Positions 16,830-47,225 of a stretch of DNA of 64,000 nucleotides are shown piece by piece. A model generated the notes under the pieces. The model searched no databases. It had not been told where the DNA came from and saw nothing but the letters and a program-made list of their open reading frames with translations. How positions within the stretch are numbered: position 1 is the stretch's first letter; each line of letters opens with the position of its first letter. This DNA is from Nanobdellota archaeon (GTDB taxonomy: Archaea; Nanobdellota; Nanobdellia; SCGC-AAA011-G17; JACPIM01), in assembly GCA_038046265.1 (NCBI GenBank), contig JBBSWN010000010.1:75091-139090 (forward strand), written 5' to 3'. The translations under genes and the position numbers were made by a program.

Positions 16830-17681
16830 CTATTGGTTTTTTTGCATGTTTTCTTTTAATTTTAGAATTGTTTCTTCTATTCTTTTTGTTATATCTGGCA
16901 GTTTAAGGCCTGTTTTTTCTAATTTAGTTGTATCTATAATAGCATCTACTCTTTTTACTTTTGATTTTTTGTCTAATTCTTCTTTTGGTTTTATGTTAAT
17001 TTCCATTTTATCTTTGAGATTATCTTTTAACATTAGCGCTATTTTATGTGGTGAAATAGTTCCTGAATTAGTAATATTAAATATTCCTGTTTGATTTTTG
17101 TCTATTAGATGCTTAGTTGCCAGTAATAAATCATCTGCAATTGTCATGCTATTTGGATTTGTATGAAATTCTTTATAATTCAGCATTTTATGAAGTATAT
17201 TTCTTGGGTGAACTTTAGAACTTAATAATAGCCTTGGTCTTAATATTAATACTTTTAGTCCTTTTTTTATTTTGTCTTGCAGTAACTGGTCTGCCCATGT
17301 TTTTGTCCACGAATAAAATGCAATTGGTTTCGGCAGGTCTGTTTCTTTGAATATTGGCTTACCGTCAATGCTTTCAAATATACAACCAGAAGAAATATGG
17401 ATTAAGAAAATATTATTTTTAAGACAGACTTTTGCTACATTATCTGCACCTAAGGTATTAACTTTGAATGTTTCTAATCTATTTTCTTCACACCAGTCTG
17501 TATTTGTTTTTGCTGCTGTGTTAATTACTATATTTGGCTTGAAATTGTCAACAGCTTTCTGAACTTCTTCTTCGTTTGTTATATCTACTTGCGCTATTTC
17601 AGATTTATAGTTGTTATTATTAAAGAAATCTTTGTATAAGTTCCCTAATTGCCCATTTCCAAAGATAAGAATTTTGTGCAT
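16830..17681 (-). CDS. NAD(P)-dependent sugar reductase, dTDP-4-dehydrorhamnose reductase (RmlD)-like
   Basis: Begins MHKILIFGNGQLGN, with AAKTNTDWCEEN and YSWTKTWADQ in the relative positions of the RmlD motifs. Confidence 0.55.
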   Translation of the reverse strand: MHKILIFGNGQLGNLYKDFFNNNNYKSEIAQVDITNEEEVQKAVDNFKPNIVINTAAKTNTDWCEENRLETFKVNTLGADNVAKVCLKNNIFLIHISSGCIFESIDGKPIFKETDLPKPIAFYSWTKTWADQLLQDKIKKGLKVLILRPRLLLSSKVHPRNILHKMLNYKEFHTNPNSMTIADDLLLATKHLIDKNQTGIFNITNSGTISPHKIALMLKDNLKDKMEINIKPKEELDKKSKVKRVDAIIDTTKLEKTGLKLPDITKRIEETILKLKENMQKNQ

Positions 17682-17744
17682 TTGAAAAAGTATTTATACT
17701 CGTTTTTAGTGGGTCTATGCTATTTATTAAGTTTTTGGAGAAAA

Positions 17745-18638
17745 ATGAAAAAATTGACTTTATTGAATATTAATTTTAATGATAGCAACCATACGCTGGA
17801 GTTATTAGAGAGTTTAAAGAATTCTAATTTTAAGGAATATGACTTTTTAGTATGGGACAATAATTCTACAAAGCCAGAGGCTGCTGAAGCGAGAGATAAA
17901 ATAGAGAAAATGCAGGATATTAAACTAATCAAAAACAGCAAAAATTTAGGTTTTACAGGCGGTGTTAATGGAGCTCTTAAACACATTAAGACAAAATATG
18001 TTTTATTGTTAAATCCAGACACTATAATTGATAAAGATACAATTAAGGAAATGCTAGGTCTTATTGAAGGTGATGAAAAAATAGCTTTTGTAAGCGCAGC
18101 AATTTATAATTATCATCAAAGAGACAAGATAGACTCTTTTGGCGGGAAAATGAGTTTTTTTACTGGCATAGGAAGGCCGTTGAAAATTGAAACTGAAACC
18201 AGAGAATTGAAAGATGGAGAATATTGCGATGCCTGCTGCTTGATGTTTAACAGGGAAATTTTTATAGAATTAGGCGGGTATGATGACAGGTATTTTGCTT
18301 ATGCTGAAACAGAAGATGTTTTATTTAAAGCTATGAAAAAAGGGTATAAAGTTTATATAAACCCTAAGGCAAGAGTATGGCATAAACTATATGGAAGTTC
18401 TGGGGGAAAAAGGAGCAAATTTACAACTTATCATTTAGCTAGAAATAGAATTCTGTTAATGAGGAAGTATTTATCATTACCAAGATTTATGCTCTTTTTA
18501 TTTTTGAATTTATTTTTAATTACTCCGGTACAAACTTTAATATTTTTGAAAAGAAAACAGTTTGATTTAATGCCGAGCTATTATAAGGGAATTTTACACG
18601 GACTTATTGGGAAATATGGAATGGCTTTTTTTGAATAG
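17745..18638 (+). CDS. Glycosyltransferase family 2
   Basis: The ORF-track frame starts on TTG at 17649. The first ATG is at 17745, preceded by GGAG. GT-A fold with a DxD-like region and LNPDTIID. Confidence 0.7.
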   Translation: MKKLTLLNINFNDSNHTLELLESLKNSNFKEYDFLVWDNNSTKPEAAEARDKIEKMQDIKLIKNSKNLGFTGGVNGALKHIKTKYVLLLNPDTIIDKDTIKEMLGLIEGDEKIAFVSAAIYNYHQRDKIDSFGGKMSFFTGIGRPLKIETETRELKDGEYCDACCLMFNREIFIELGGYDDRYFAYAETEDVLFKAMKKGYKVYINPKARVWHKLYGSSGGKRSKFTTYHLARNRILLMRKYLSLPRFMLFLFLNLFLITPVQTLIFLKRKQFDLMPSYYKGILHGLIGKYGMAFFE

Positions 18639-18674
18639 ATTTATATATTAACTTATTTGGTTCTTGCATGCAAA

Positions 18675-19727
18675 ATGATTCAAGATAAAGATTTAATTTT
18701 ATTAAGGGAAGATTTAATTAAATTATCCCGGAGAATAGGTAGAGGAATTTCAGAGGATGTTTTTGGAAGATTATCTATAATAGAAAGAAAAAAACAAGTA
18801 TTTAACCAAAGGACTGAAGGAAATACTTCAAAGCTCGATGCTATTGCAGATACTATTATAGTTTATGAAGCACAAAAAATAGCTCGTAAACATGGAATTC
18901 CAATTTCTATTTTATCTGGTGGAGACAAAATTAAAGAAGAAGTTAATGTTTCTGTATCAGGATCGTTACAAGATAGGGTTGTATTTTCATGTGATGGAGT
19001 TGATGGCACCACAAATGCAATGACTGATGGAATGCCTTGGGCATCTGCTTTATTTGGATATACTGACCCAACAAGCAAACCTTTAGAAGGACTTAAATTT
19101 GGGGATTTTGTTACTGGTGCTGTGTATGTTGTTAGTGGAACTTCATTTGGTACTGTAAAAACGGGAAATTTATTTTTTGCTTATGATGGATGTGATTCTG
19201 CTATATTAAATGATGTTAATGGTGGCTTGTATCCTTTATTAACAACAGAAGAAACACAAGCTAAAAATTGGACATTTGGAATAGATACTATGGCTGCCAG
19301 AGCAACATATCTGCCTGGGCCAGAAAGAGACACAAAAGGAAGCGCTAGAAGACAGAAATTCTGGCAAGCTTTGACAGGATTAATTGGAACTGCTGTAAAT
19401 GATGAAGTTAGATTATTCGGGGCTGGATTAGAGCAAATGGCTATATTATCGCCTGCTACTGATAAAATAGATACAACCTTAAGTTTTTATTCTGGAAATC
19501 CAAGATTAGCTGGATGTTTAGCTGCTTACCAATTTAAAGATAATATTATTGGACCAAAAACAATTTTGAAAAAAGCTGGTGCAAAAGTTGTTGTATTTGC
19601 CGGACCGCAAAAAGGAATGGATATTGATGAAGTTCCATTACAACCACATACACATTATTTAGCTGCTGGTAATGATGAAGTTAAGAACTTTGTTTTAGAT
19701 GCTTTAAAAGATTATAATCCGGATTAA
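18675..19727 (+). CDS. Divergent inositol-monophosphatase/FBPase-family sugar phosphatase (tentative)
   Basis: SCDGVDGTTNAM resembles the DP(I/L)DGT motif. WTFGIDTMAARA resembles WD.AAG, and LAAGNDE lies in the C-terminal region. The first ATG is at 18675; the track's TTG start is at 18657. Confidence 0.35.
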   Translation: MIQDKDLILLREDLIKLSRRIGRGISEDVFGRLSIIERKKQVFNQRTEGNTSKLDAIADTIIVYEAQKIARKHGIPISILSGGDKIKEEVNVSVSGSLQDRVVFSCDGVDGTTNAMTDGMPWASALFGYTDPTSKPLEGLKFGDFVTGAVYVVSGTSFGTVKTGNLFFAYDGCDSAILNDVNGGLYPLLTTEETQAKNWTFGIDTMAARATYLPGPERDTKGSARRQKFWQALTGLIGTAVNDEVRLFGAGLEQMAILSPATDKIDTTLSFYSGNPRLAGCLAAYQFKDNIIGPKTILKKAGAKVVVFAGPQKGMDIDEVPLQPHTHYLAAGNDEVKNFVLDALKDYNPD

Positions 19728-19775: not shown

Positions 19776-21938
19776 ATGACTAGAGTTCTTGTAACAGGAG
19801 GAGCTGGATTTATTGGACACCATTTTATTAATCATTTGCTTGTAAATACTGACTGGGAAATTATTGTTTTAGATAAATTAAATTATGCAAGCTGTGGGTG
19901 GGACAGAGTAAGAGACATAAATGTTTTTAATCCTAAAAGAGTTTCTTTATTGTCTGCTGATTTTTCTCACCTTCTTGATCAGGGACTTGTAAAAGAAATT
20001 GGAGACTGCGATTATATTTTTCATATAGGTGCTGAGACGCACGTCGACAATAGTATTTTGAATCCAGAACCTTTTGTGATGAGTAATGTTGTTGGAACTA
20101 TGAGATTATTGGATTTAGCAAGAACAATGCCAAATTTAAAGAAGATGTTTGTTTTTTCCTGTTATGATCAAGATACATTTGCTTTAACTAAAAATGGAAT
20201 TAAAAAATTTGATGAAATCAAAGTAGATGATAAAGTTTTATCTATTAATCCTAAAACCGGCGAATTAGAAGAAAAGGATGTTGAGGCTGTAATTATTCAA
20301 GATTATGAGGGAGATATGTATCATTTTGAAAGTTCCAGAGCAGACATAAAAGTTACTCCAAATCACAGGATGTTTTTTGTTTCAAGTAAGGAAGGAATTC
20401 AAGTTGAAGAGGCTAGTGAAGTGGCAAAAAGATCAGTTGTTCATTTGCCAAGAGGAAACTGGAAGGGAGAAGATCAAGAAAATATTTTTTTAGAAGGAAT
20501 CGGTTATGTAAAAACAGAAGATCTTTTTTATTTATGTGGTATTTTTATTGGTGATGGATTTACTGCTAAGCAAATAAAGATTATGGAATCGAAGAGCGGT
20601 TTGACTAAATTAGAAAGAATGGATTTGGCAAGAGATTCTGAAACTGGCAGATTTATTAATACTGGAAAGATTGGGCCAATTGAAGTTGTGACTAGTACAA
20701 GCTGGAGAATATTTTTCGATATCCCTGTTTTAGATAAAGCGAGAGAAAGGCTGGAAAACACTTTACAAAGCTTAAATATTAAATATTCTGCACATTCTGG
20801 AAAGTCAGGAGAGCATATTTATTTTTCATCTAAAGAATGGCTGAAATTTTTTGAACAATTTGGAAAAGGTGCAGAAAATAAAAACATTCCTTCATGGATG
20901 CTAGAATATGATAAAAAATATTTGAAGTGTTTATTTGAAGGCCTTATTGATAGTGACGGATATTATGGCAAAAGCCACATTCAATATACTACAATATCTA
21001 AAAAGCTTTTAAAGGATATTTGTGAACTTGGATTTAAATTAGGAAGATACCCTTTTTTTAGAAAACGATATAGTGAATCTATTTTTGAAAACAGAGTAAT
21101 TAAAGGTTATGCTTATTATATTAATTTTCCATTACAAGATGTTAAAATTGGAAATAAAAATGTTAAAATAGAAAATTACAAGGGGAAGATATGGTGTCTG
21201 AAAGTAAAAGATAATAAAAATTTTATTGTTGCCAGAAATGGCAAACTAGCTTTCTGCGGAAATACTGATGAAGTTTATGGACACGCACCAGATGGTGTTG
21301 CTTACAAAGAATGGGACAGGCATAATCCAACAAATCCTTATTCTGCTTCAAAGTCAGGTGGGGAAATGCTGGCTTTATCGTATGCAAATACTTATGGTGT
21401 TCCTGTTGTTATTACAAACTGTATGAATGTTTTTGGTGAAAGACAACATCCTGAAAAATTTATACCAAAAGCATTGAATAAAATTCTTAAAGGAGAGAAA
21501 GTTACTTTACATTATTATCCTGGAAAGGAAAGACCGGGTGCAAGATTCTGGATACATGCAAGAAATGTTGCTGCGGCAATTATGTTTTTAATAGATCATG
21601 GAAAAGTTGGAGAGAAATATAATATTGTTGGAGAAAAAGAAGTTGATAATTTAGAGATTGCAAAAATGATTTCAAAAATTACTGGCAAAGAGTTAAATTA
21701 TGAAATTGATGATACTTATATGGACAGACCAGGACATGACTTAAGGTATGCTCTTGATGGAACAAAAATGAAAGAAATGGGTTGGCATATTCCAATTCCA
21801 TTTGAACAGTCGTTTGAAAAAACAGTCAGATGGATGGTGCACGAAAATAATTTAAGATGGCTTGATATCAGCACTTATTCTAAACTTGTGAATGGAAAAA
21901 ATGCCATGCAAAAAGTTGCACTTCAATCTATCAAGTAA
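19776..21938 (+). CDS. rmlB: dTDP-glucose 4,6-dehydratase (RmlB-type short-chain dehydrogenase) interrupted by an intein
   Basis: GGAGFIGHHF Rossmann motif and the YSASK catalytic motif. The conserved S-TDEVYG motif is split by 368 aa. The spliced extein would be 352 aa. Confidence 0.8.
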   Translation: MTRVLVTGGAGFIGHHFINHLLVNTDWEIIVLDKLNYASCGWDRVRDINVFNPKRVSLLSADFSHLLDQGLVKEIGDCDYIFHIGAETHVDNSILNPEPFVMSNVVGTMRLLDLARTMPNLKKMFVFSCYDQDTFALTKNGIKKFDEIKVDDKVLSINPKTGELEEKDVEAVIIQDYEGDMYHFESSRADIKVTPNHRMFFVSSKEGIQVEEASEVAKRSVVHLPRGNWKGEDQENIFLEGIGYVKTEDLFYLCGIFIGDGFTAKQIKIMESKSGLTKLERMDLARDSETGRFINTGKIGPIEVVTSTSWRIFFDIPVLDKARERLENTLQSLNIKYSAHSGKSGEHIYFSSKEWLKFFEQFGKGAENKNIPSWMLEYDKKYLKCLFEGLIDSDGYYGKSHIQYTTISKKLLKDICELGFKLGRYPFFRKRYSESIFENRVIKGYAYYINFPLQDVKIGNKNVKIENYKGKIWCLKVKDNKNFIVARNGKLAFCGNTDEVYGHAPDGVAYKEWDRHNPTNPYSASKSGGEMLALSYANTYGVPVVITNCMNVFGERQHPEKFIPKALNKILKGEKVTLHYYPGKERPGARFWIHARNVAAAIMFLIDHGKVGEKYNIVGEKEVDNLEIAKMISKITGKELNYEIDDTYMDRPGHDLRYALDGTKMKEMGWHIPIPFEQSFEKTVRWMVHENNLRWLDISTYSKLVNGKNAMQKVALQSIK
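20160..21263 (+). mobile_element. Intein (368 aa) with a LAGLIDADG homing-endonuclease domain, inserted in rmlB
   Basis: It starts with Cys (CYDQDTFALTKNG). Block B is KVTPNHRMF. Two LAGLIDADG motifs are present (LCGIFIGDGF and LFEGLIDSDGYY). The C-terminal block is NFIVARNGKLAFCGN, followed by a +1 Thr. Flanking exteins rejoin as FVFS|TDEVYG. Confidence 0.75.
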
Positions 21939-22027: not shown

Positions 22028-22582
22028 ATGTTACAAACAATTACAAAAGAATTAATTGAAGAAATGGCTGAAAAAGCCAGAACAAGTCCGAGGAAGAGGG
22101 CGCTAAAATGTTTGCATACTCCTCCAAAAGGACCTGAAGATAATTCTTATGAACCACAAAGACTAGTAAATGCTTTTCAAAGAGACACTTATGCACAACC
22201 ACACAAACACGGAAACAGAGATGCAAATGGAAATGAGGATCCTAACAATCCATCTAAATTAGAAACGTTTACAGTTTTAAAAGGAAAGCTTTATGTTGTA
22301 TTTTTTGATGATCAAGGACATTTAAGAGAAGAAATTTTGCTTTCAAATGATTTAATTCCTTATGTTGAAGTTCCACCAGGAACATGGCATACTGTAGTTG
22401 GAGAATCAGAAGTTTCTGTTGGGTTAGAAGTTAAAGTTTTAGATCCAAGCAACCAACAAAGTCCGACATATAATATGAGAACTGATAAATTCTTTGCACC
22501 TTGGGCTCCAAAAGAAGGAACTCCAGAAGCTGTTCAGTATTTAGAAGGTCTAAGAAAAAGATTAGCTATTTTTAGAGCATAA
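22028..22582 (+). CDS. Cupin-fold protein (WbuC-like, or an RmlC-like epimerase)
   Basis: 184 aa with a beta-rich region and conserved His residues (HKHGN...GTWHTV), typical of cupins found in O-antigen loci. Confidence 0.4.
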   Translation: MLQTITKELIEEMAEKARTSPRKRALKCLHTPPKGPEDNSYEPQRLVNAFQRDTYAQPHKHGNRDANGNEDPNNPSKLETFTVLKGKLYVVFFDDQGHLREEILLSNDLIPYVEVPPGTWHTVVGESEVSVGLEVKVLDPSNQQSPTYNMRTDKFFAPWAPKEGTPEAVQYLEGLRKRLAIFRA

Positions 22583-22643: not shown

Positions 22644-23795
22644 ATGAGGTATGATTTTGTAGTTTTGGGCGCCACTGGCATGCAGGGCAGGATTGTATCT
22701 AGAGACTTATTAGAAAATGGATTTTCTGTTTTAATGTGCGGGAGAGACAAGCCGAGAGTAGACCAAATTTTAGACAAATATGATAAAACTTCTTTTCAAT
22801 ATGTTGACATAAATGACAAGAGCCATGCTTTGGATGTTTTGAAAAAATCAGGAGCTAATGTAGTTGTAAACTGCATGGAGGGAGATTTTAATTTATTAGC
22901 TTTAGAACTTTCAATGAAAGCAAATGCAAGCTGTCTTGACCTTGGGTCTGAAATATGGATGACTAAGAGACAATTAAAATTAAATGATTTATTAAAAAGA
23001 AAAGGATTAATTTCTATTACAGGATGCGGGAGTGTTCCGGGTGTTGGAAATGTAATGCTGACTCATGCTGCAAATAAATTAGATAAAGTTACTGACATTG
23101 ATGTTGGATTTAGCTGGGACTCAAACATAAAGAAGTTTGTTGTGCCATTTTCAATTAAAAGTATTTTAGAAGAGTTTACTGATCCTGCTCCTATTGTACA
23201 GAAAGGAAAATTTATTAAGAAAACTCCTTTAGATTCTGTAATTGTTGACCATCACAGGGAAATTGGGAAGCAGAAAGAATTTTTTGTAAGGCATCCAGAA
23301 ACTTATACTTTTTTCAGGTATTTTAAAGATAAGGGAGTAAAGAACATAAGATTTTATGCTGGATTTCCGCAACATTCTTTTGAAAAGATAATGGCTATGA
23401 TAGATTTAGGGTTAGCAAGTTATGATGAACTTTTAATTAATGGGGTGAAAATAGCTCCTGTTGATTTTTTGACAGAAGTCTTGAAAAGAATTCAAATTCC
23501 CAAAGAATACAAGGAAGAGGAAAATTTATGGGTTAAAGTTACAGGAGAAAAGAACAAGGAGAAGAAAACTATTTTAATGGAATGTATTGTGCCGACTTTA
23601 AGTGGATGGCATGATGCTGGGTGCAATATTGACACTGGAATGCCAGCAAGCATAATGGCCCAGTTTGTGAAAAATGAAACTATTAAAGAGAAGGGAAGTT
23701 TTGCTCCTGAAGCTTGTGTACCGCCAGAACCTTTGTTCAAGGAATTAAGAAAGAGAAAAATGGTTGTTTATGAGAATGGAAGAATAATAAATTAA
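22644..23795 (+). CDS. Saccharopine dehydrogenase-like NAD(P)-binding oxidoreductase
   Basis: Begins MRYDFVVLGATGMQGRIV. The C-terminal domain resembles the Sacchrp_dh family. Confidence 0.5.
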   Translation: MRYDFVVLGATGMQGRIVSRDLLENGFSVLMCGRDKPRVDQILDKYDKTSFQYVDINDKSHALDVLKKSGANVVVNCMEGDFNLLALELSMKANASCLDLGSEIWMTKRQLKLNDLLKRKGLISITGCGSVPGVGNVMLTHAANKLDKVTDIDVGFSWDSNIKKFVVPFSIKSILEEFTDPAPIVQKGKFIKKTPLDSVIVDHHREIGKQKEFFVRHPETYTFFRYFKDKGVKNIRFYAGFPQHSFEKIMAMIDLGLASYDELLINGVKIAPVDFLTEVLKRIQIPKEYKEEENLWVKVTGEKNKEKKTILMECIVPTLSGWHDAGCNIDTGMPASIMAQFVKNETIKEKGSFAPEACVPPEPLFKELRKRKMVVYENGRIIN

Positions 23796-23798
23796 TTC

Positions 23799-25187
23799 TT
23801 AGGCTGCGCTTGATAATTTAATTCCATACAACTGATTGTCTTTATAGCCTCTGAATTTATTATAAACAAGTTTGTAAAGATTTTTTATAGGTTTATTATC
23901 TGGCATGTTAATTAAGACTTTTAACAAACCAGTTTTGTATATAACTGGGTAAGCTGCTGCTACTGCAAACCATTTTTGTAGATGCTCTACTTGTTTTTTA
24001 TTTTTAAGTTTTACTATCGTGGTTTCAAAGAATTTAGGACCAATGTCATTAAAGTCACCTTCTAAAAGACCACGAGATATTGCATATTCTGTTAAAGGCA
24101 AGCCAGGATAAGGCTGGAATATTGAGCACCAAGCATATAAAGGCTTACATTTTATATTCATTTTTAATGTTTCTATGTCTGTTTCTAAACTTGATTCTGG
24201 CAAACCTAAAATATTCTGCAACATGATTTTTATTCCATATTTGTGCAATAAATCTGATGCTTTGTAGACTGTTTCCTTGTCCATTTCTCTTTTAATTACA
24301 ACATTTCTTATATAATCGTCTGCTGCTTCCAAAGCCATGTGAACTGAGTAACAGCCTGCTTCTTTTAATAAACGAGCTGTGTTTTCATCTACAGTGTTCG
24401 GCCTTACGTGACAATGGAAAGGCAAATTAATTTCTTTTTTATATTTTTCTGAGAATTCTTTTAACCAAGGCTTGTTCATTACAAAAATATCATCTTGAAA
24501 ATAAACAAATTTACCGCCATGTTTTTCAAATACTTGTTTTATTTCAGCAATTAAATTATCTACTGATCTCCATCTAACCCACCTTCCTTTTCCACCATAG
24601 ATTTTATCTATTGATGCATTGAAACAGTATTGACATTTATAGGCACAACCCCTGCAAGCTATGAAATGTCTTATTGGTTCATCTTTCCAGATTTTATGTT
24701 CATATGCAACATCTCTATCTGGAAAAGGCAATGTGTCAAGAGATTCATTTAGATTTCTAATTTCATTTTTGTAAATTTTTCCATCTTTTTTTATCCAAAG
24801 ATTTTGAATATTTGTGTAATCTTTTCCTTCGTCATAATTATTTGCCAATTCTGCTATTGCTTCCTCACATTCACCTTGCGCTACAATGTCCATTCCTTCT
24901 TCTTCTATTACTTGTGGGTGGAAAGTTGGATGTGAGCCACCCATTAAAGTCAAGAAATTATGATGTTGTTTTAATTCATTTGTTATTCTTAGAAATTCGG
25001 TTTGACCACCAGTCATTACAGAACCAGCTACAACATCGGGTTTAAAGTCTTGGACTACTTTTTTTAAATCGTCTTGGCCAATAACTGCTATTTTTGTCTG
25101 GTGGTTGTATTTTTTTAGAATTGCACTTATGTATAATAAACCTAAGGGTTCTACAGGATGCTTCCATGCTAAAAATAGAAATTTCAT
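23799..25187 (-). CDS. B12-binding radical SAM enzyme (probable methyltransferase class B)
   Basis: N-terminal cobalamin-binding Rossmann region (GGSHPTFHP), followed by the CAYKCQYC CxxxCxxC motif. Confidence 0.75.
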   Translation of the reverse strand: MKFLFLAWKHPVEPLGLLYISAILKKYNHQTKIAVIGQDDLKKVVQDFKPDVVAGSVMTGGQTEFLRITNELKQHHNFLTLMGGSHPTFHPQVIEEEGMDIVAQGECEEAIAELANNYDEGKDYTNIQNLWIKKDGKIYKNEIRNLNESLDTLPFPDRDVAYEHKIWKDEPIRHFIACRGCAYKCQYCFNASIDKIYGGKGRWVRWRSVDNLIAEIKQVFEKHGGKFVYFQDDIFVMNKPWLKEFSEKYKKEINLPFHCHVRPNTVDENTARLLKEAGCYSVHMALEAADDYIRNVVIKREMDKETVYKASDLLHKYGIKIMLQNILGLPESSLETDIETLKMNIKCKPLYAWCSIFQPYPGLPLTEYAISRGLLEGDFNDIGPKFFETTIVKLKNKKQVEHLQKWFAVAAAYPVIYKTGLLKVLINMPDNKPIKNLYKLVYNKFRGYKDNQLYGIKLSSAA

Positions 25188-25236: not shown

Positions 25237-26505
25237 TTAATAAGGTTCTATTTTAAGTTTGTCACTAATATCTTTTCCTTGTTCATGCATAAAAATTGTT
25301 TCTGCCATATAATCTATGCCGTCTAGAGTTCCATATTTTTCTTTTAAATCTTGATTAAAACTTCTATTAAATCGTGCTCGATCCACTGCTTTTTCTAATG
25401 ACTTTTTAGGATCGGAAAAATCTATTTCAACACCTAGCTCTAATCTCTCAACACCGTGATTATTCATTATTATTTCTGGATCATCCTTGGGTTTGTATGA
25501 TGGGAATAATAAACCCACATCTAATCCATGTTCTGCCAGCATATGAATAGACCAAACAGAAGACCAACCAGTTCGAGCTATCTGGGCTTTTATTCTTTGA
25601 TTTGCTATTTTAAATGGTGGGTGTTTAATTCCTCCGACTCGATTATTTAAATTGTCATCACTTGAATAAATCTGCAGACCCATTTCTTTAGCAATATCAT
25701 AAAAACCAGATTCTGCCAAACCCTGAATTCCTGTAACAACAACGTAAATTCCATCTTTAGGTAATTCAGTTGTATCTAATTTAGGAACATGCATTTGTGG
25801 TGGACAAGATAATTCTGTTGGTTTTTGTTTTTCTCTTCTTCTCACATAAGAAAATACTCCTGGATCAGAAACAAAATGGAGTTTCTGATAATCTGTTAAT
25901 CTTCCAGCTAAGGGGATTACTTTTTGGATTAATTCTGGATCTATCTGGACTTCGGGAAAACTTAAGGCTCTTGACAGAACTTCTGAAAAGTAGCCTGCAC
26001 CTGCATTCATGTAAAATGCATTTTGGTGTTGCAATCTTATTCTGTTATTAAAATCAAAAACTGCTGTTGTGTCTTTTAGATCTATAGCTACTTTTTCTCC
26101 TGTTAAGGTTTCAAGTTCTCTTTTTTCATTTTCAATTAGTTTTTTTAATTCTTCTTCATTTTCTGCATTATGTACTAAAAAATCTTTTAATGCTTCTTCA
26201 TAATCTGAACCTTTGAAAAAAACTTTATCTAATAAAGCTCCAACCTTTAAATCTAGTAAAAATTCACTAGGATGTTTTTCAAGAAAATCTTTTCCAGCTG
26301 CTTCTTCAGCTATTTCTTTCATAAATTGTTTTTGCCTTGACCCGGGTTCTTTGCCTTTGAAAGCATAGGAAGGAATTAAAGGAAAAACTGCTGGCAGTCT
26401 TTGAAGACCTAGAGCTTCTCTTTGATTATTGTAAGAAATAACAAAGTCAACCATTCTTGAGAACGGGCCATTACCATGAGCAAAATTAATATATATGTGT
26501 GACAT
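25237..26505 (-). CDS. Hypothetical protein (possible GT-B-like fold)
   Basis: 422 aa, not lysine-rich. The C-terminal ARTGWSSVWSIHMLAEHGLDVGLLFP loosely resembles a GT1/GT28 nucleotide-sugar binding region. Confidence 0.3.
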   Translation of the reverse strand: MSHIYINFAHGNGPFSRMVDFVISYNNQREALGLQRLPAVFPLIPSYAFKGKEPGSRQKQFMKEIAEEAAGKDFLEKHPSEFLLDLKVGALLDKVFFKGSDYEEALKDFLVHNAENEEELKKLIENEKRELETLTGEKVAIDLKDTTAVFDFNNRIRLQHQNAFYMNAGAGYFSEVLSRALSFPEVQIDPELIQKVIPLAGRLTDYQKLHFVSDPGVFSYVRRREKQKPTELSCPPQMHVPKLDTTELPKDGIYVVVTGIQGLAESGFYDIAKEMGLQIYSSDDNLNNRVGGIKHPPFKIANQRIKAQIARTGWSSVWSIHMLAEHGLDVGLLFPSYKPKDDPEIIMNNHGVERLELGVEIDFSDPKKSLEKAVDRARFNRSFNQDLKEKYGTLDGIDYMAETIFMHEQGKDISDKLKIEPY

Positions 26506-36845: not shown

Positions 36846-37982
36846 ATGACTTTAAACCAGTTTTCTAATGCTGAAAGAATGGCTTATCAGGTAATTAGGA
36901 AAATACCAGCAAGAATAAAGAATCCTTTAGTTGCAAATATCAATAGATTTAGAGTAAAGAGAGTGAAGAATTTTCAAACACCACAAAATTTGATTTTTTA
37001 TGTTACTGATTACTGCAATGCAAGATGCTCTCATTGTTTTTACTGGAAGAATTTGAACAAGAGACAAGATGAAATGACATTAGATCAAATAAAGACAATG
37101 ATAAAATCATTGAAAACACAATTAAACATGCTGGTAATCACTGGTGGGGAGCCTTTTATCAGAAAAGATCTTTATGAGATATGCTCTGCTTTTTACCAGA
37201 TAAACAAGACAAAAAGAATTAACATTGTGACTAATGGATTATTAGGAACTAAAATTCTTGATACAGTAACAAGACTAGTTACTGAAAATCCTGATAAAAG
37301 ACTGACTATTATTGTTTCTTTAGATGGTTTAGAAGACACGCACAATATGATAAGAAGAGTTCCTAATATATGGAAAAAGGACATTGAATTAATTGATGAT
37401 TTAAAGAAAATTGCTGAACAGCATTCTAACTTGTCATTGTTTGTAAATTTGACTATGACAAAGACAAATATACATGAAGTAAAGCCTTTAAGCAAATTTG
37501 TTAAAGATGAATTAAAGATTAATTTTAAGGTAAATGTTTTAAGGACAGGAAAAAATTATTATCAAGTTCCAAAAGAAATTTTAATGGATTATGAGCCTGA
37601 GATTTCCAACCAGCCAAGTGTTGAGGAATTAGAAGAAGTTTATGAATGGATGGACAAAGAGACTGAGGATTTACCAGGAAAAGTTGAGGTTTTGAAACTA
37701 AAGCACTCAATTGACATGATAAAGCATGAGAAGCCAACTTTAAAATGTTTGGCTGGGTATAATGACGGGGTGGTTTTTCCAACTGGGAAAGTTGCTATAT
37801 GCGAGCCTACAAAATCTTTTGCAGATTTAAAAGATTATAATTTTGACTTTAACAAATTATGGAATTCTAAGGAAGCCCAGTTAATGAGACAGCAGACTAG
37901 CGAGTGTTTTTGTCTGCAATCCTGCAACTTGCTTAATTCTATGAAATATGACACAGCTACACTTAAAAACCTGCTAAAGTAA
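36846..37982 (+). CDS. Radical SAM enzyme with a C-terminal SPASM/twitch Cys cluster
   Basis: CNARCSHC CxxxCxxC motif plus a C-terminal Cys-rich region (CEPT...CFCLQSC). GGAGGG lies upstream. Confidence 0.7.
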   Translation: MTLNQFSNAERMAYQVIRKIPARIKNPLVANINRFRVKRVKNFQTPQNLIFYVTDYCNARCSHCFYWKNLNKRQDEMTLDQIKTMIKSLKTQLNMLVITGGEPFIRKDLYEICSAFYQINKTKRINIVTNGLLGTKILDTVTRLVTENPDKRLTIIVSLDGLEDTHNMIRRVPNIWKKDIELIDDLKKIAEQHSNLSLFVNLTMTKTNIHEVKPLSKFVKDELKINFKVNVLRTGKNYYQVPKEILMDYEPEISNQPSVEELEEVYEWMDKETEDLPGKVEVLKLKHSIDMIKHEKPTLKCLAGYNDGVVFPTGKVAICEPTKSFADLKDYNFDFNKLWNSKEAQLMRQQTSECFCLQSCNLLNSMKYDTATLKNLLK

Positions 37983-38038: not shown

Positions 38039-39184
38039 ATGAAAACTACATTAGTGTCAAGCACATTGTCTAGCAATCCTTTTATTAGAATGTATCCTTT
38101 TGGAAGAATTTTAAGTGAAAAATATGAGACCAAGATTACAGGACCTGTAAATTCAAATGGAATTTATGAGCCTTTGAGAAATGAAGAATGGAATATAAAG
38201 CCTGTAAAGGAACTTAAAATATTTCCTTTTTACTTGAAGACTTTTTATGATATCTGCAAAAAAGTTGATTCTGATATTGTGCATGTTTTTAAGCCGAAAG
38301 TTTACAGTTACGGAGCAGGATTATGGCTAAAGTTATTGAAAAACAAGAAAATAATTTTGGATATTGATGACTGGGAGAGCCAGTATGTTTATGATAATTA
38401 TTTTTCTTTAAATCCAGCTGACATTATGAAATTTTTTTTAGTTGATTTTTATTATCCTGAAAGTTATTTTTCAAAGAAAATATTAGAAAAATTAAGGAAT
38501 TATTCTGACAGGATTATTGTTGATGCCTTATGCCTGCAAAAGAAGTTTGGAGGAACTTATATTCCGTCTGGGGCTGACACTGATTTGTTTGATCCTGAAA
38601 AATACAACGGGAAAAGGATAAGAGAGAAGTTTGGTGTTGAGAAAGATGAAATTTTAGTTTCTTTTATAGGAACTCCCAGAAAGCATAAAGGAATATTAGA
38701 ATTATTGTGGGCTTTTAAGGAAGCAAGAAAAGAAAACCACAAAATAAAATTAATGATTATTGGAGCTAGTTCTGATAATAAATTTGCCAATGAATTAAGA
38801 AAAAAAGAAGGAATTATTGTAGAGAATTACAGACCACATAATGAGATTCCGGAGTATGTTGCTGCTGCTGACATTATAGCTACTCCTTTGAAAAGCAATC
38901 CTTCTGCTATGATGCAGATGCCATACAAAATTTACGAAATGATGTCAATGGCAAAACCAATTATTGCAACTAATGTTGCTGATATTTCAATTGCCTTGAA
39001 AAACTGCGGGACAGTTATTGAGCCTAATAACTTAGAACAGTTAAAGAAAGGAATTTTAGAGTACAGCGAGAATATCAAATTAAGAAACCTGCATGGAAAA
39101 AGAGCAAGAGAAAAATGCATTAAGGAATACAGCTTTGATGTTATAAGAAAAAGAATTTTTGAAGTTTATGATAATTTAAGTTAA
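38039..39184 (+). CDS. Glycosyltransferase family 4
   Basis: GT-B C-terminal motifs. The first ATG is at 38039; the track's TTG start is at 37988. Confidence 0.6.
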   Translation: MKTTLVSSTLSSNPFIRMYPFGRILSEKYETKITGPVNSNGIYEPLRNEEWNIKPVKELKIFPFYLKTFYDICKKVDSDIVHVFKPKVYSYGAGLWLKLLKNKKIILDIDDWESQYVYDNYFSLNPADIMKFFLVDFYYPESYFSKKILEKLRNYSDRIIVDALCLQKKFGGTYIPSGADTDLFDPEKYNGKRIREKFGVEKDEILVSFIGTPRKHKGILELLWAFKEARKENHKIKLMIIGASSDNKFANELRKKEGIIVENYRPHNEIPEYVAAADIIATPLKSNPSAMMQMPYKIYEMMSMAKPIIATNVADISIALKNCGTVIEPNNLEQLKKGILEYSENIKLRNLHGKRAREKCIKEYSFDVIRKRIFEVYDNLS

Positions 39185-40179
39185 TTCTTGACCAGATTAT
39201 TTTGTTTTTCTACGAGATTTTCTTTCATAAATTCAATGTATCTTTTTAAACCTAATTCCAGATTGTGTTTTGGATTATAACCTAGAAGGTTTTTTGCTTT
39301 TGTTGGATCTAAAGTTCCTCTTTTAGGTCTCTTAAATCCAGCATCTTTGTTTACATATTCAATCTGGAGGTCTTGAAAATGTGATTTAAGAATCATTGCA
39401 AAATCTAGTAAAGATCTTGCTTCACCGAATGTAATATTAAATGTTTCATTTTGAGCTTTTGGTTCGAATGTTGCCAGAACAAACCCGTCTGCTAAATCTT
39501 CAACATATGTAAAGTCCAACTTTTCTTCCCCATTATTAAATAATTTTATTGGTTTTTTAAGAACTGCATTTTCTACAAATATCTGAGTAACTCTTCTGTT
39601 TAAATCTGTTGGGCCGTAAACCGCTGACGGCCTTATTATTGTATAGTCTAAATTGCTTCTTATGCCTGCTATTTTTGTTAAGTGTTCGCCAAATAATTTT
39701 GTTGCACCATATATGTTTACTGGAGTTAAAGGATGATCTTCAGTTATTTTGTCAAACAAGAAATTGCCGTAAACCATGCTAGATGATGTATAAACAAATC
39801 TTTCAACGAGACTATATTCTTCAACTGCTGATAAAAGATTGGCCGTGCCTAGGCAAGTATTGGAGATAGATTCATAAATATTTTTTTCACTAATTTCTGC
39901 AACTGGAATTGCTGCCAAGTGAATGACTCTTGTTGGCTGGTGTTTTTTTATAATTCTTGATATAATCTCTTGGTTAGTTGTGCTGCCTCTTTCAAAAGTT
40001 ATAGAGTTTTCTAGGCCCTGGAATCTTAATTTTATGTATTTACTATATTGTCCTGTTAATGGGGGAGAATATTGTTCGAAAGCATCTAGAATAACTATTT
40101 CATGACCTAGTTCAACAAGTTTTCTGACAATGTGGGAACCTATAAATCCAGCTCCACCTGTTATGAGTATTTTGGCCAT
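39181..40179 (-). CDS. NAD-dependent sugar epimerase/dehydratase (UDP-sugar 4-epimerase or 4,6-dehydratase class)
   Basis: Begins MAKILITGGAGFIGSH and has the YGATK catalytic motif. Confidence 0.75.
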   Translation of the reverse strand: MAKILITGGAGFIGSHIVRKLVELGHEIVILDAFEQYSPPLTGQYSKYIKLRFQGLENSITFERGSTTNQEIISRIIKKHQPTRVIHLAAIPVAEISEKNIYESISNTCLGTANLLSAVEEYSLVERFVYTSSSMVYGNFLFDKITEDHPLTPVNIYGATKLFGEHLTKIAGIRSNLDYTIIRPSAVYGPTDLNRRVTQIFVENAVLKKPIKLFNNGEEKLDFTYVEDLADGFVLATFEPKAQNETFNITFGEARSLLDFAMILKSHFQDLQIEYVNKDAGFKRPKRGTLDPTKAKNLLGYNPKHNLELGLKRYIEFMKENLVEKQNNLVKN

Positions 40180-44997: not shown

Positions 44998-46338
44998 TTA
45001 ATAGCCACCTTTCAATAAAAAGGTTTTTCCCATGTCAAACAAGTACTTTGCTTCATGAACAGAAAACCTTTTCATGAATGAAGTAAAATAAGCTGGCCTA
45101 AGGTAAAATCTTTTTAAAAAGTATTTGTATCTTTTGTTTAACTCAGGATCTTTATTATAAAAGTAAAGCAAGCCATCCCAATTACCTTCTTTATATTCTT
45201 CATCATATTCATCAAACAAAGGAGAGCCTGGAACTGGTGTGAAAAAAGACAACCATAAATAGTCTGGATTTATTTTCTTTGCAAGAGAGACGCTTTTTTC
45301 TAAGTCTTCCCATTCTTCACCTGGCAGACCAACAATAAAGTAGGATTTTGTTTTTAAACCAACTTTTCTTGCAACTTTAAAAGTTTCTTCAATCATGCTA
45401 ATGGTGATTCCTTTTCTTACATTGTTAAGGACTTTCTGGCTTCCGCTTTCAACGCCAAAAGAAACAACTTCACAACCTGCTTCTTTCATAGCTCTTAAAG
45501 TTTCTTCAGATATTTTTACTCTTAACTGCGAGGACCATCTTATTCCTAAATCTTTTATTGCTGCACAGATTTCTTGAACTCTGTCTTCTTCTGTTGTAAA
45601 ATTGACATCATCAAAAATAATGCTTCTTATTCCGAATTTTTCCTTAAGCATTTTTATTTCGGCAACAATGTTTTCAGTGCTTCTATATCTAGTTCTTCTT
45701 TGAAATGTTGTGTAGTCTGCACAAAATGTACAAGTAAAAGGACAGCCTCTTGATGAATTTATTTGGGTTGTTAATTCACCTGGCTTGCAAACAAAACCAA
45801 ACTGAACTGTGCCTGCATATTTTTTTAAGTTTATTAAATGCCTTGCAGGGAAAGGAAAATTGTCTAAGTTCTCTTCAAGTTCACGAGGCTTGTTTTTATG
45901 TATGCCATTTTCATCTTTATATGCAAGGCCATCAATTTTACTTTGTTCTTTGCCCTGGCAATATTCCAGGAATGTCCATTCAGATTCACCGAAGCATGCT
46001 GCTTCACATTTTAATTCTTCAATTGTTCTTTCTGGAAATGCGCTTGCATGAGGACCGCCTGCAATTACTTTTGCATTGTGATCATGAGCAAATTTTGTCA
46101 AGTAAATAGCTCTTTTTATACAAGGACTTACCACGCCCAAGCCTACAATATCTGGCTTGAATTGCTTTACTGCGTCTTCAAAAATGTCACCACATAATTC
46201 ATCAACTATTTTGACTTCAAAATTATTAGCTTCCAGCATGCTGGCTACATATAAAAGACCAATAGGCTGATGCCTGCCGCCCACTGCTTTCATATTACCC
46301 ATGACGTCATTATCGACGCGAACCAGCAAAATTTTCAT
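44998..46338 (-). CDS. B12-binding radical SAM enzyme
   Basis: N-terminal cobalamin-binding domain (AGGPHASAFPE), followed by CPFTCTFC. Confidence 0.75.
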   Translation of the reverse strand: MKILLVRVDNDVMGNMKAVGGRHQPIGLLYVASMLEANNFEVKIVDELCGDIFEDAVKQFKPDIVGLGVVSPCIKRAIYLTKFAHDHNAKVIAGGPHASAFPERTIEELKCEAACFGESEWTFLEYCQGKEQSKIDGLAYKDENGIHKNKPRELEENLDNFPFPARHLINLKKYAGTVQFGFVCKPGELTTQINSSRGCPFTCTFCADYTTFQRRTRYRSTENIVAEIKMLKEKFGIRSIIFDDVNFTTEEDRVQEICAAIKDLGIRWSSQLRVKISEETLRAMKEAGCEVVSFGVESGSQKVLNNVRKGITISMIEETFKVARKVGLKTKSYFIVGLPGEEWEDLEKSVSLAKKINPDYLWLSFFTPVPGSPLFDEYDEEYKEGNWDGLLYFYNKDPELNKRYKYFLKRFYLRPAYFTSFMKRFSVHEAKYLFDMGKTFLLKGGY

Positions 46339-47225
46339 TAGTTTTTTACCTCTTTAATCCAAAGCTTTAATCCTGTATCAAAATCAAGTGGTTTAAAGTT
46401 TAAATCTTTTTCTGCGGGGCCAATGTCCAAGGCTCTTTGCTTTTGAGTCATGCTTAAATATTGTTCATGTGTCATCAGCCAATGCATGCCTAGAGCTTCA
46501 TTTACCTTAATTATGAATTTAAACGGCCAGGCAGGCACTTTGATGTATTTTTTACTGCCTGGAGTTAATCGGCCTATTTTTTTCATATATTCTTTTATAG
46601 TTAATTTGGTTGCTCCACCAATATAATAAGTTTTGTTTAAGGCTATTTTAGATTCAAGAACTTTCATTATTATAGAAATTATGTCATCTATATAAACTGG
46701 GCGTATTTCAGCATCTCCTATAACTGGGATAATTGAGTGCTTTCTTAACAAATTATATGTCATTGTCAAACCTTTGTCTCCTTTTCCGTAAATCATGGCG
46801 GGCCTTATTATTACAAAAGGGATTTTGCTGTTTTTAACTATTATTTCACTTTGGAGCTTGCTGTTTCCGTAAATTCCCAGTTCTTTAAATGTTGCATTAA
46901 CAGAACTAAAGTGAATAATTTTCTTTACAGAATTTAACTGGCATGCTTCAATCAAATTTTTAGTTCCAAGGACGTTTACAGAGTAATTTGTATTTTTATT
47001 TATTGACTGGACTGCTGCTGCAAGATGAACAACATAGTCAATATTTTTTGCTGCGTCTATTAAACTGTTTTTGTCAAGCAAATTTCCGTGAACAAGTTCG
47101 ACATTTTCCTTAAATTCAGGCTTAGTTTTTGAGAACAAGCAACGAACTTTGTATTTTTTTACAGCTTCTTTAACAAAATGCTTTCCTATGAAACCTGTAG
47201 AACCTGTTATTAAAATATTTTTCAT
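46338..47225 (-). CDS. NAD-dependent epimerase/dehydratase
   Basis: Begins MKNILITGSTGFIGKHF. Its stop overlaps the start of the downstream rSAM gene. Confidence 0.7.
   Translation of the reverse strand: MKNILITGSTGFIGKHFVKEAVKKYKVRCLFSKTKPEFKENVELVHGNLLDKNSLIDAAKNIDYVVHLAAAVQSINKNTNYSVNVLGTKNLIEACQLNSVKKIIHFSSVNATFKELGIYGNSKLQSEIIVKNSKIPFVIIRPAMIYGKGDKGLTMTYNLLRKHSIIPVIGDAEIRPVYIDDIISIIMKVLESKIALNKTYYIGGATKLTIKEYMKKIGRLTPGSKKYIKVPAWPFKFIIKVNEALGMHWLMTHEQYLSMTQKQRALDIGPAEKDLNFKPLDFDTGLKLWIKEVKN

Follow-up and report, generated by a model that had tools for sequence, protein, structure and literature searches.

How can an RmlB-like sugar-nucleotide enzyme have its active-site motif parted by 368 residues, and what is the segment that parts it? 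The question is raised by a gene in the window (the whole 64,000-nt stretch of DNA analysed here) of an uncultured groundwater archaeon, the identical protein being encoded on six contigs from several Hainich groundwater samples. The gene (19776–21938, + strand, stop codon included) was assigned from the ORF list and from its Pfam SDR and intein domains to the precursor of an RmlB-like NDP-sugar 4,6-dehydratase plus an intein, and its intact 2160-nt frame encodes 720 aa (82.6 kDa). An earlier note, made from the letters alone, had described an intein with a LAGLIDADG endonuclease inside dTDP-glucose 4,6-dehydratase (RmlB); the ORF translation has the 720-aa frame, the 368-aa insert (20160–21263), the motifs, and the terminal ...AFCGN before Thr all where that note had put them. 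The profile, the predicted fold, the family comparison, and the empty allele agree in supporting the intein-plus-endonuclease reading. From the conservation of the residues concerned, we infer splicing and cleavage by a class 1 splicing intein that carries a LAGLIDADG homing endonuclease within an RmlB-like precursor, with a probability of roughly 0.85.

Host enzyme and gene neighbourhood

The N-extein (aa 1–128; 19776–20159, + strand) contains the Rossmann motif GGAGFIG (19797–19817) and ends in ...MFVFS, and the C-extein (aa 497–720; 21264–21935, + strand) starts with the catalytic Thr-Asp-Glu (21264–21272) and includes YSASK (21339–21353). Removal of the insert leaves a 352-aa extein with the junction FVFS|TDEVYG, which gives a single unbroken match to GDP_Man_Dehyd, Epimerase, and TIGR01181 in profile searches, and can be aligned to solved RmlB structures (6bi4, E 9e-60) with no gap at the junction. 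This alignment, proposed in the earlier note as a check, confirms the insertion site and the contiguous realignment of the exteins, and the junction is intact as had been claimed. The rejoined protein has the features of the extended-SDR fold, with the catalytic TDE at the junction and YSASK downstream; TDE, Y522, and K526 are invariant among the aligned homologues, and the closest proteins of solved structure are, without exception, dTDP-glucose 4,6-dehydratases. On TIGR01181 the extein scores 279.3 bits, under the 365.1-bit cutoff, although this is still the best-scoring family by far; we therefore call the host RmlB-like, rather than a certified equivalog.

The precursor gene lies in a glycan cluster that includes other SDR enzymes. 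Pathway context is provided by an RmlD-like reductase (16830–17681, − strand; Pfam RmlD_sub_bind, 121 bits) encoded on the other strand, some 2 kb upstream. Neither RmlA nor RmlC was recognised among the scanned window ORFs, and neither a second RmlB or RmlB paralogue nor a second copy of the RmlB intein was found within the window. For the full-length precursor, the best match among the GTDB species representatives searched is 46%.

Splicing domain

The insert sits between Ser128 and the catalytic Thr of S-TDEVYG, with CYDQDT as its N-terminal residues after ...KKMFVFS. Pfam Intein_splicing (PF14890) matches it at 49.3 bits (cutoff 35.8). With an AF2 model of the precursor (pLDDT 86) as query, Foldseek matches the exteins to RmlB structures and the insert to intein-endonucleases (7qsu, 1dq3, 2cw7, and 1vde; E 1e-15 to 4e-13). 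Together with an empty allele in a related genome (L083, below), these results define an intein of 368 aa and 42.5 kDa (ORF aa 129–496; 20160–21263, + strand), in which a LAGLIDADG endonuclease domain interrupts a HINT splicing domain, within an RmlB-type SDR enzyme.

The splicing residues do not vary among 32 inteins that belong to three host proteins (block numbering per PMC2807308). Block A (20160–20204, + strand) has the form Cys1-Tyr-Asp...Thr10..Gly13.Lys15, with Cys1 as the N-terminal nucleophile, and C1, D3, T10, G13, and K15 belong to this invariant set. Block B (DIKVTPNHRMFF; 20343–20378, + strand) includes TPNH as intein residues 66–69, in which T66, N68, and H69 are invariant; Thr66 is B:7, His69 is B:10, and B:12 is Met71, not Trp, this last position being Met, Ile, or Val in the RmlB-hosted family. 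In block F (YKGKIWCLKVKDNKNFIV; 21177–21230, + strand), Trp345-Cys346 (W345 in 120/120, C346 in 119/120) brings a Cys to F:4, where Asp is usual; the placement comes from an HMM alignment that sets WC opposite the YD of PI-PkoII VYDLSV. Within the same interval and on the same strand, Lys353 takes the place of the His that is usual in block F, and the conserved aromatic residue is Phe355; NadE-hosted members have HNL where the RmlB-hosted intein has KNF. The hairpin ARNG and block G, KLAFCGN|T (21231–21266, + strand), contribute Cys366 (G:5), the penultimate Gly367 (G:6), Asn368 (G:7), and Thr+1 (G:8). At G:5 the RmlB-hosted family has Cys (109 members) or Ser (11), and Thr is confined to CapD-hosted relatives. 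Among the 120 closest listed homologues, the N-terminal junction S|CYD and Cys1 are retained in all 119 that cover them, and the C-terminal junction ...GN|TDE, the block B Thr and His, and G367, N368, and T+1 are retained in every one.

At three near-invariant positions the window copy differs from the family consensus (R7F, G23D, and E358A); position 358, Ala in this copy, is Glu in 118/120. Positions 7 and 358 covary, with 171 R/K–E pairs, 14 E–R swaps, and also hydrophobic pairs; Phe7 and Ala358 of the window copy would represent a covarying contact, which makes it unlikely that this intein has decayed. There is no compositional island at the intein, its GC content being 0.300 (GC3 0.190), that of the extein 0.338, and that of the window 0.315.

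Endonuclease domain

The LAGLIDADG homing-endonuclease domain spans intein residues ~106–335 (20475–21164, + strand), approximate limits that are based on profile alignment with PI-SceI, PI-PkoII, and TliVMA, on the fold match, and on secondary structure in the model. The family profile matches the endonuclease parts of PI-PkoII, TliVMA, and PI-SceI with E 2e-11 to 3e-6. LAGLIDADG_3 (PF14528) scores 22.3 bits on the insert, just under its cutoff of 22.5, and the endonuclease call therefore draws on the motifs, on alignment of profiles, and on the matching fold, which together uphold the endonuclease that the earlier note had placed inside the intein. Motif 1 (block C, LCGIFIGDGF; intein 125–134; 20532–20561, + strand) contains Asp132 (119/120), equivalent to PI-SceI Asp218 in an alignment covering PI-SceI 208–230. 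Block D (NKNIPSW; 20877–20897, + strand) contains Lys241 (120/120), equivalent to Lys301 of PI-SceI (KNIPSF), and motif 2 (block E, FEGLIDSDGYY; intein 259–269; 20934–20966, + strand) contains D264 (120/120) and D266 (117/120), the latter equivalent to PI-SceI Asp326. D218, K301, and D326 are the three catalytic residues of PI-SceI; with their equivalents kept, the endonuclease looks intact by alignment.

Comparison with known inteins

The solved inteins TliVMA (7qsu/7qss), PI-PfuI (1dq3), PI-PkoII (2cw7), and PI-SceI (1vde) share with the RmlB intein a HINT domain split by a two-motif LAGLIDADG endonuclease, as well as Cys1, the block B TxxH, and the C-terminal Asn, and profile alignment with them covers blocks B, C, D, E, and F. 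However, identity to any solved intein is low (12–17%), and the RmlB intein differs in having Gly rather than His as the penultimate residue, Cys rather than Asp at F:4, and Thr at +1; the solved examples interrupt an ATPase, a polymerase, or a reductase, whereas the host here is a sugar-nucleotide dehydratase. The UDP-glucose dehydrogenase intein of methanogens (COG1004; 10 copies in Euryarchaeota; PMC4760082) likewise resides in an archaeal enzyme for an envelope-glycan precursor, but its host fold and insertion site differ, and no evidence of kinship between the two inteins was found.

Class 3 inteins, such as those of mycobacteriophage Bethlehem DnaB and Mycobacterium DnaB-1, share with the RmlB intein the F:4 Cys and, at G:5, a small residue with a hydroxyl or thiol group, and the Bethlehem DnaB intein also has Thr at +1. 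They lack Cys1/Ser1 and have Trp at B:12, unlike the RmlB intein with its invariant Cys1, TPNH, and B:12 Met. A class 3 assignment was considered for the F:4 Cys: this residue is present, but so is a nucleophile at position 1, B:12 is not Trp, and G:5 is Cys366 instead of Thr; the presence of Cys1 and the residue at B:12 rule the assignment out.

Inteins without a penultimate His are known to splice (PMC7664689; PMC4031507), and examples cited in PMC4031507 include those of Chen, Benner & Perler (2000), the Ceu ClpP intein (Wang & Liu, 1997), and the Ssp DnaE structure. In these inteins, as in the RmlB intein, residues other than a G:6 His must assist Asn cyclisation, which is a known minority condition. 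Unlike them, the present clade combines a fixed G:6 Gly (206/209) with the F:4 Cys, and its RmlB-hosted members carry Lys or Arg for the block-F His.

Empty allele, distribution, and mobility

An intein-free allele (P0265/L083) is present in a related genome; it is 87% identical, has the same gene order, and is also accompanied by the RmlD-like neighbour. The window flanks abut exactly in it, without a gap, at TCA|ACT: its junction DNA is ...AAATTTTTTTACTTTTCA|ACTGATGAGTATTATGGACAT..., and the rejoined junction of the window is ...AAGATGTTTGTTTTTTCC|ACTGATGAAGTTTATGGACAC.... All 120 closest listed relatives of the extein are likewise intein-free.

Hundreds of RmlB-like proteins (90%-identity clusters) have an intein at the same site, 376 proteins reaching E<=1e-5 among the candidates scored. 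The occupied site is spread over at least 15 bacterial and archaeal phyla, and about 48 species-representative MAGs from both domains carry the intein at the RmlB site; one source labels such a protein 'dTDP-D-glucose 4,6-dehydratase/intein/homing endonuclease'. The closest intein to the window copy is only ~54% identical. Other hosts of the clade, which numbers 196 representative inteins at E<1e-30, are Gmd, other extended SDRs (GalE-like), CapD-type dehydratases (CapD/PglF), NadE, and a MetE-like methionine synthase. Judged by these sequence comparisons, the RmlB intein is a real element that belongs to a clade common in metagenomes, and its host is not rare. The description of the host as uncommon in the earlier note thus holds for the classical curated lists and fails for metagenomes, where hundreds of clusters are occupied at the RmlB site. 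Similarly, the penultimate Gly is a minority feature among inteins, as had been stated, but it is not peculiar to the window copy, being found in 120/120 of the RmlB-hosted family and 206/209 of the wider clade; Cys at block-F position 4 is clade-wide in the same way.

A paper describing an RmlB-hosted intein was not found in the searchable literature. InBase reportedly includes 'Ter Ndse' inteins in a Trichodesmium NDP-sugar epimerase. In a 2015 survey, the table of frequent intein hosts includes UDP-glucose dehydrogenase, and RmlB is absent from that table (PMC4760082).

Pairs of family members share on average 51% identity in the intein and 46% in the extein; for the window copy, the corresponding values are 51% and 39%. 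Across phyla, inteins that are 72–79% identical reside in exteins that are only 47–67% identical. Because the rest of the extein clade to which the window copy belongs lacks an intein, and because conservation is higher in the intein than in the host enzyme, the comparison points to movement of the intein by horizontal homing. Similarity between phyla and a sporadic distribution lend indirect support to cleavage of the intein-free allele. Whole-gene transfer is seen too (one Altarchaeum extein and one Microgenomates extein are 79% identical), and some MAG taxonomic labels may be wrong; thus, the phyletic spread is not wholly attributable to intein homing.

Proposed splicing and homing

The intein separates Ser128 from the catalytic Thr of the SDR Thr/Tyr/Lys triad, and therefore the unspliced protein cannot be an active enzyme. 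Most likely, the intein would remove itself post-translationally by the standard class 1 route. An N–S acyl shift at Cys1, aided by Thr66 and His69 of block B, would be followed by transfer of the N-extein to the hydroxyl of Thr+1; cyclisation of Asn368 would then free the intein, and an O–N shift would restore the peptide bond in ...FVFS-TDEVYG.... The predicted products are a 40.1-kDa enzyme and a free intein of 42.5 kDa. The C-terminal steps would have to proceed with Gly367 where the penultimate residue is normally His and with Cys346 where block F normally has Asp; the two substitutions are fixed throughout the clade. The excised intein, as a two-motif LAGLIDADG endonuclease, presumably cleaves alleles that lack the intein within their conserved active-site sequence, after which repair would copy the intein into the cut allele. 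Homing of this kind would explain the use of the same site in many phyla, the greater conservation of the intein than of the host gene, and the empty site in a close syntenic relative.

Counting against splicing, Gly stands in for the penultimate His, Cys for the Asp of block F, and Lys for its His; in the window copy, the near-invariant Gly23 is moreover replaced by Asp. The Ceu ClpP intein, which has a penultimate Gly, reportedly fails to splice in E. coli unless this Gly is changed to His.

Alternative explanations

Several other readings of the insert can be weighed against a splicing intein with an active endonuclease. The intein might splice while its endonuclease is inactive in the window lineage, such that it is domesticated or stranded and inherited only vertically. 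The isolation of this lineage (the closest intein being as distant as noted above), the slightly sub-cutoff LAGLIDADG_3 score, and intein GC and GC3 values as low as those of the host, which indicate that the intein is not a recent arrival, are consistent with this reading. We nevertheless consider it unlikely, because the window copy keeps all three residues aligned with the catalytic residues of PI-SceI, and because the endonuclease part is 48% conserved across the family compared with 46% for the extein, which would be unexpected if the domain were decaying. It is much less probable still that the splicing function itself is defective and decaying, with the RmlB-like gene effectively inactivated. 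The departures at positions 7, 23, and 358, the missing penultimate His, and the other SDR enzymes in the glycan cluster could be read in this way, but the frame is intact over 2160 nt, the same protein recurs on six contigs and in several samples, all nucleophiles and block B are preserved, the covariation of positions 7 and 358 marks them as a contact pair, with hydrophobic pairs in some other members, and the window has no other RmlB.

A chemically active Cys346 throughout the clade, either as a class-3-like relay through a block-F branched thioester or in a Cys1–Cys346 disulfide that makes splicing redox-dependent, is a doubtful proposition. Class 3 inteins are recognised by their F:4 Cys nucleophile (PMC2807308, PMC5222942), in the present family this Cys is kept in 119/120 alongside Cys, Ser, or Thr at G:5, Thr+1, and the lack of a penultimate His, and disulfides of active-site cysteines are known to gate splicing (PMC4031507). 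On the other hand, neither Cys1 nor the standard TxxH of block B varies, B:12 is Met and not Trp, and class 1 inteins with an F:4 Cys are already known and polyphyletic (PMC3196547). That the 368 aa are never excised and simply form a normal accessory domain in a subfamily of these dehydratases has a negligible probability: nothing speaks for it beyond the presence of the segment in hundreds of homologues, whereas the segment has an intein profile and fold with complete splice-junction residues, parts the catalytic Thr from the preceding strand, and is absent from the 120 closest listed extein homologues. The uninterrupted, 87%-identical syntenic allele and the occurrence of the same module in the unrelated NadE and methionine synthase refute this reading.

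Implications for the intein clade and its hosts

A broader proposal, which we put forward tentatively and consider improbable as a whole, is that the window intein is a member of a large clade, not found described in the searchable literature, with the signature CYD...TPNH...WC...(E)RNG...xGN. This clade would have specialised, in Bacteria and Archaea, on nucleotide-sugar enzymes of the extended-SDR type (RmlB, Gmd, GalE-like, and CapD/PglF), with their catalytic Ser/Thr codon as its target, would also have moved to the unrelated NadE and MetE-like methionine synthase, and would splice with a non-canonical C-terminal set comprising F:4 Cys, G:6 Gly, and, in RmlB-hosted members, no block-F His. 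If the clade splices, how Asn cyclisation and the coordination of the steps would be accomplished with Thr+1 but with neither a penultimate His nor a block-F Asp is a testable question in intein chemistry; should the F:4 Cys take part in the reaction, whether as relay nucleophile or as redox switch, the clade would stand mechanistically between classes 1 and 3. For metagenomes, the comparison reveals a populous intein clade in enzymes of sugar-nucleotide, NAD, and methionine metabolism, in hosts that are unlisted in surveys of cultured genomes; in MAG annotation, such proteins now bear the name 'GDP-mannose 4,6-dehydratase' and are double the usual length. The filled allele of the window and the empty allele of L083, with shared gene order in two related DPANN-type archaea, provide a clean example of intein invasion, in which the invaded site is the catalytic threonine of a metabolic enzyme and not a replication protein.

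Intein and Host Enzyme

The 720-aa ORF at window 19776..21938 (+) encodes an RmlB-like enzyme with an intein inside it (20160-21263, +; 368 aa, ORF residues 129-496). The insert follows ...KKMFVFS, begins with CYDQDT, carries TPNH (intein residues 66-69), LCGIFIGDGF (125-134) and FEGLIDSDGYY (259-269), and ends with KLAFCGN before a Thr; scripted location in the ORF recovered exactly the coordinates and motifs reported in an earlier note. Deletion of the insert leaves a 352-aa protein with the junction FVFS↓TDEVYG. Pfam Intein_splicing matches the insert at 49.3 bits (cutoff 35.8), and LAGLIDADG_3 at 22.3 bits, just under its cutoff of 22.5. An AlphaFold2 model of the precursor (input of 36 homologues) has a mean pLDDT of 86; its low-confidence regions are confined to the two junctions and the C-terminal tail. 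By Foldseek against the PDB, the exteins of this model match RmlB structures (TM-score on target 0.8-0.9), and the insert matches the intein-endonucleases TliVMA (7qsu, 1e-15), PI-PfuI (1dq3), PI-PkoII (2cw7) and PI-SceI (1vde). Profile, predicted fold and empty allele thus support the original reading as an intein with a LAGLIDADG endonuclease, and the finding is real.

The rejoined extein (the host protein without the insert) matches GDP_Man_Dehyd (1-331/332) and Epimerase in Pfam, each in one unbroken stretch. Its best NCBIfam model, dTDP-glucose 4,6-dehydratase (TIGR01181), scores 279 bits against a 365-bit cutoff, and the host is therefore named RmlB-like. Extein residues 3-327 align with solved dTDP-glucose 4,6-dehydratases (6bi4, E 9e-60; 2hun, E 3e-59) and are gap-free at ...VSTDEVYG.... 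Because the +1 Thr of the intein is the Thr of the Thr-Asp-Glu motif, with YSASK further downstream, the intein is located in the catalytic centre, the usual placement of inteins (PMC7765530). No other RmlB was found within the window.

Empty Allele and Genomic Setting

The best support for regarding the 1104 bp as a discrete inserted element comes from comparing the filled and empty alleles. None of the best 120 matches to the rejoined extein (324-367 aa, 59-87% identity) contains an intein; the few named sources are Pacearchaeota, Nanoarchaeia, Sungbacteria (CPR), and one Pseudobdellovibrionaceae bacterium. The best match (P0265) is 87% identical over its full length and reads ...FFYFSTDEYYG... 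without interruption. Its contig (L083; NCBI GCA_053532875.1) has the gene order of the window: L22-S19-L2-L23-L4-L3, an RmlD-like gene, a GT2 glycosyltransferase, the dehydratase, and a B12-radical-SAM gene. The two flanks of the insert adjoin in L083 DNA at TTT TCA↓ACT GAT, with neither gap nor duplication.

At the nucleotide level, the window extein is 84% identical to the empty allele overall, but the 15 nt that border the junction on either side (window 20145-20174 joined to 21249-21278 vs. L083:6370-6399) are 70% identical; just 4% of 30-nt windows have so low a value. The window has TDEVYG, as in intein-bearing alleles, and the empty allele TDEYYG. The low junction identity, which is statistically weak, could reflect a tract of co-conversion or a target variant resistant to cleavage. 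L083, syntenic in other respects, lacks three genes that flank the dehydratase in the window: those for a 356-aa protein with no family match (18657-19727, +), a WbuC-family cupin (22028-22582, +), and a saccharopine-dehydrogenase-like protein (22644-23795, +); the locus has thus been remodelled beyond the intein insertion.

The window (GC 31.5%) is from an archaeon: L3_arch (363 bits) and rpl4p_arch (271 bits) match its proteins above cutoff. Among the contigs that carry the identical gene, one derives from a 0.1-um fraction of groundwater. A DPANN lineage is therefore probable. The dehydratase gene is at the edge of a ~45-kb surface-glycan cluster adjoining the ribosomal protein operon. This glycosyltransferase-rich cluster contains eight radical-SAM genes (23799-25187, 36846-37982, 44998-46338, 47232-48356, 48491-49567, 51463-53031, 53094-54530, and 58885-60324), at least four with B12-binding domains and two with SPASM, a density unusually high for a small archaeal genome. 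The longest GT2 ORF (17649-18638, +; 329 aa from a TTG start) shares 33 nt with the start of the divergent RmlD-like gene (16830-17681, -); the later start in public gene calls (297 aa) is probably the real one. Four large ORFs (342-599 aa), each scanned against one library, gave no match in NCBIfam (49587-51386, +; 55471-57219, -) or Pfam (57278-58306, +; 25237-26505, -).

Splicing Residues and Endonuclease

Inteins from three host proteins all share Cys1, Asp3, Thr10, Gly13, Lys15, Thr66, Asn68, and His69 in the N-terminal part, and Tyr340, Gly342, Trp345, Cys346, Arg359, Gly361, Gly367, and Asn368 in the C-terminal part. In the block numbering of Tori et al. (PMC2807308), Cys346 is F:4 (WC standing opposite the YD of PI-PkoII VYDLSV in an HMM alignment), and block G has Cys366 (G:5), Gly367 (G:6), and Asn368 (G:7). 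The usual block-F His position is Lys/Arg in RmlB-hosted members and His in NadE-hosted members. Class 3 inteins, defined by the absence of a position-1 nucleophile and by Trp B:12, Cys F:4, and Thr G:5 (PMC2807308, PMC5222942, PMC7664689), have Cys F:4 in common with the window intein; the latter, however, has Cys1 and Met at B:12, which rule out class 3 membership. Cys at F:4 has been described in class 1 inteins, where its carriers are polyphyletic (PMC3196547); it is the second most common F:4 residue (PMC4031507), and inteins without the penultimate His are also known (PMC7664689, PMC4031507). The combination of both features is unusual, not unprecedented.

In an alignment of a profile of 32 inteins with PI-SceI, LCGIFIGDG aligns with PI-SceI 208-219 (Asp132 = Asp218), and NKNIPSW...GLIDSDG with 301-327 (Lys241 = Lys301, Asp266 = Asp326). 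Asp218, Lys301, and Asp326 are the catalytic residues of PI-SceI. Among 120 homologues, Asp132 is conserved in 119, Lys241 in all, and Asp266 in 117; the endonuclease part shows 48% conservation, similar to the host enzyme. The window intein is likely to have endonuclease activity.

At three positions the window copy lacks a residue that is near-invariant in the family: 7 (Phe for Arg), 23 (Asp for Gly), and 358 (Ala for Glu). Covariation of positions 7 and 358 is seen across 209 clade members, with 171 R/K-E pairs, 14 E-R charge swaps, and hydrophobic pairs, among them L-A, F-I, M-I, and the window's F-A; the Fisher value for basic vs. acidic residues (4e-18) overstates independence, since the sequences are related. 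This covariation indicates a contact between block A and the F/G hairpin, compensated rather than lost in the window copy. Assemblies of several Hainich groundwater samples contain the identical 720-aa protein, on six contigs.

Distribution and Probable Mobility

Of the candidates scored in a full-protein search, 376 proteins reached E<=1e-5. The best 120 are nearly all 650-750 aa; among these, the junction S↓CYD is present in all 119 that cover it, and (C/S)GN↓TDE in all 120. In one source, such a protein is annotated as "dTDP-D-glucose 4,6-dehydratase/intein/homing endonuclease." In a scan of species-representative genomes, the full intein-bearing gene was present in ~48 MAGs, none from a cultured organism. 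Bacterial carriers include Gammaproteobacteria, Armatimonadota, Planctomycetota, Acidobacteriota, Patescibacteria, Clostridia, Actinomycetota, Omnitrophota, and Chloroflexota; archaeal carriers are Diapherotrites, Altarchaeum, Thermoplasmata, Methanosarcinales, and one Asgard archaeon. The view that this host is uncommon holds for the older literature, in which a 2015 survey of frequent intein hosts has UDP-glucose dehydrogenase but not RmlB (PMC4760082); it does not extend to current sequence data, where the site is widely occupied.

Among 115 family members, inteins average 51% pairwise identity and exteins 46%; the averages of the window copy are 51 and 39%, respectively. One group of inteins, found in Planctomycetia, Clostridia, Actinomycetota, Omnitrophota, and Patescibacteria, is 72-79% identical, its exteins only 47-67%, and archaeal and bacterial copies are intermixed by identity. 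The window extein belongs to a DPANN/CPR clade that is otherwise intein-free among its best 120 matches; the nearest relative of the window intein (54% identity) is in an extein only 38% identical. This pattern is consistent with horizontal homing, with the qualification that MAG labels can err and whole-gene transfer also occurs. The intein (GC 0.300) has no composition distinct from the extein (0.338), and thus the insertion is not recent.

The Wider Intein Clade

A phmmer search with the intein against 1.84 billion representatives found 2980 proteins at E<=1e-10, of which 196 reach E<=1e-30. The ending WC...(E)RNG...xGN is common to clade members in several hosts: NAD+ synthetase (GYF↓C...GN↓TKYGDG; the Pfam NAD_synthase match is split at position 138), CapD/PglF-type Polysacc_synt_2 dehydratases (S↓C...GN↓TDKAVN), GDP-mannose 4,6-dehydratase (TIGR01472, 338 bits, below the 415-bit cutoff), and other extended SDRs (GN↓SSEVYG, SMAVYG, or SDKAYG). 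Further hosts are a MetE-like methionine synthase and very large multi-intein proteins. In SDR hosts, the insertion point is the homologous catalytic Ser/Thr position.

Copies in other hosts occur at loci L049-L055 (e.g., L050:3007-4113), L046:3370-4416, and L047:3370-4428, and in proteins P0206, P0188, and P0160, all outside the window. NAD+ synthetase-hosted inteins (GYF↓C...FCGN↓TKYGDGG) are found in Anaerolineae, Thermoflexales, and Bipolaricaulota, and the CapD/PglF-type hosts are membrane dehydratases of Patescibacteria; giant proteins of 1.4-3.3 kaa carry clade inteins several times. No intein interrupts the three other extended-SDR genes of the window (39181-40179, 46338-47225, and 16830-17681, all -), even though clade members have entered the homologous active-site position in several families of SDR enzymes.

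The window intein is a new and apparently undescribed member of a known element type, from a clade common in uncultured microbes. What makes it of interest is the clean pair of filled and empty alleles, the range of metabolic enzymes that host the clade, and the non-canonical C-terminal residues.
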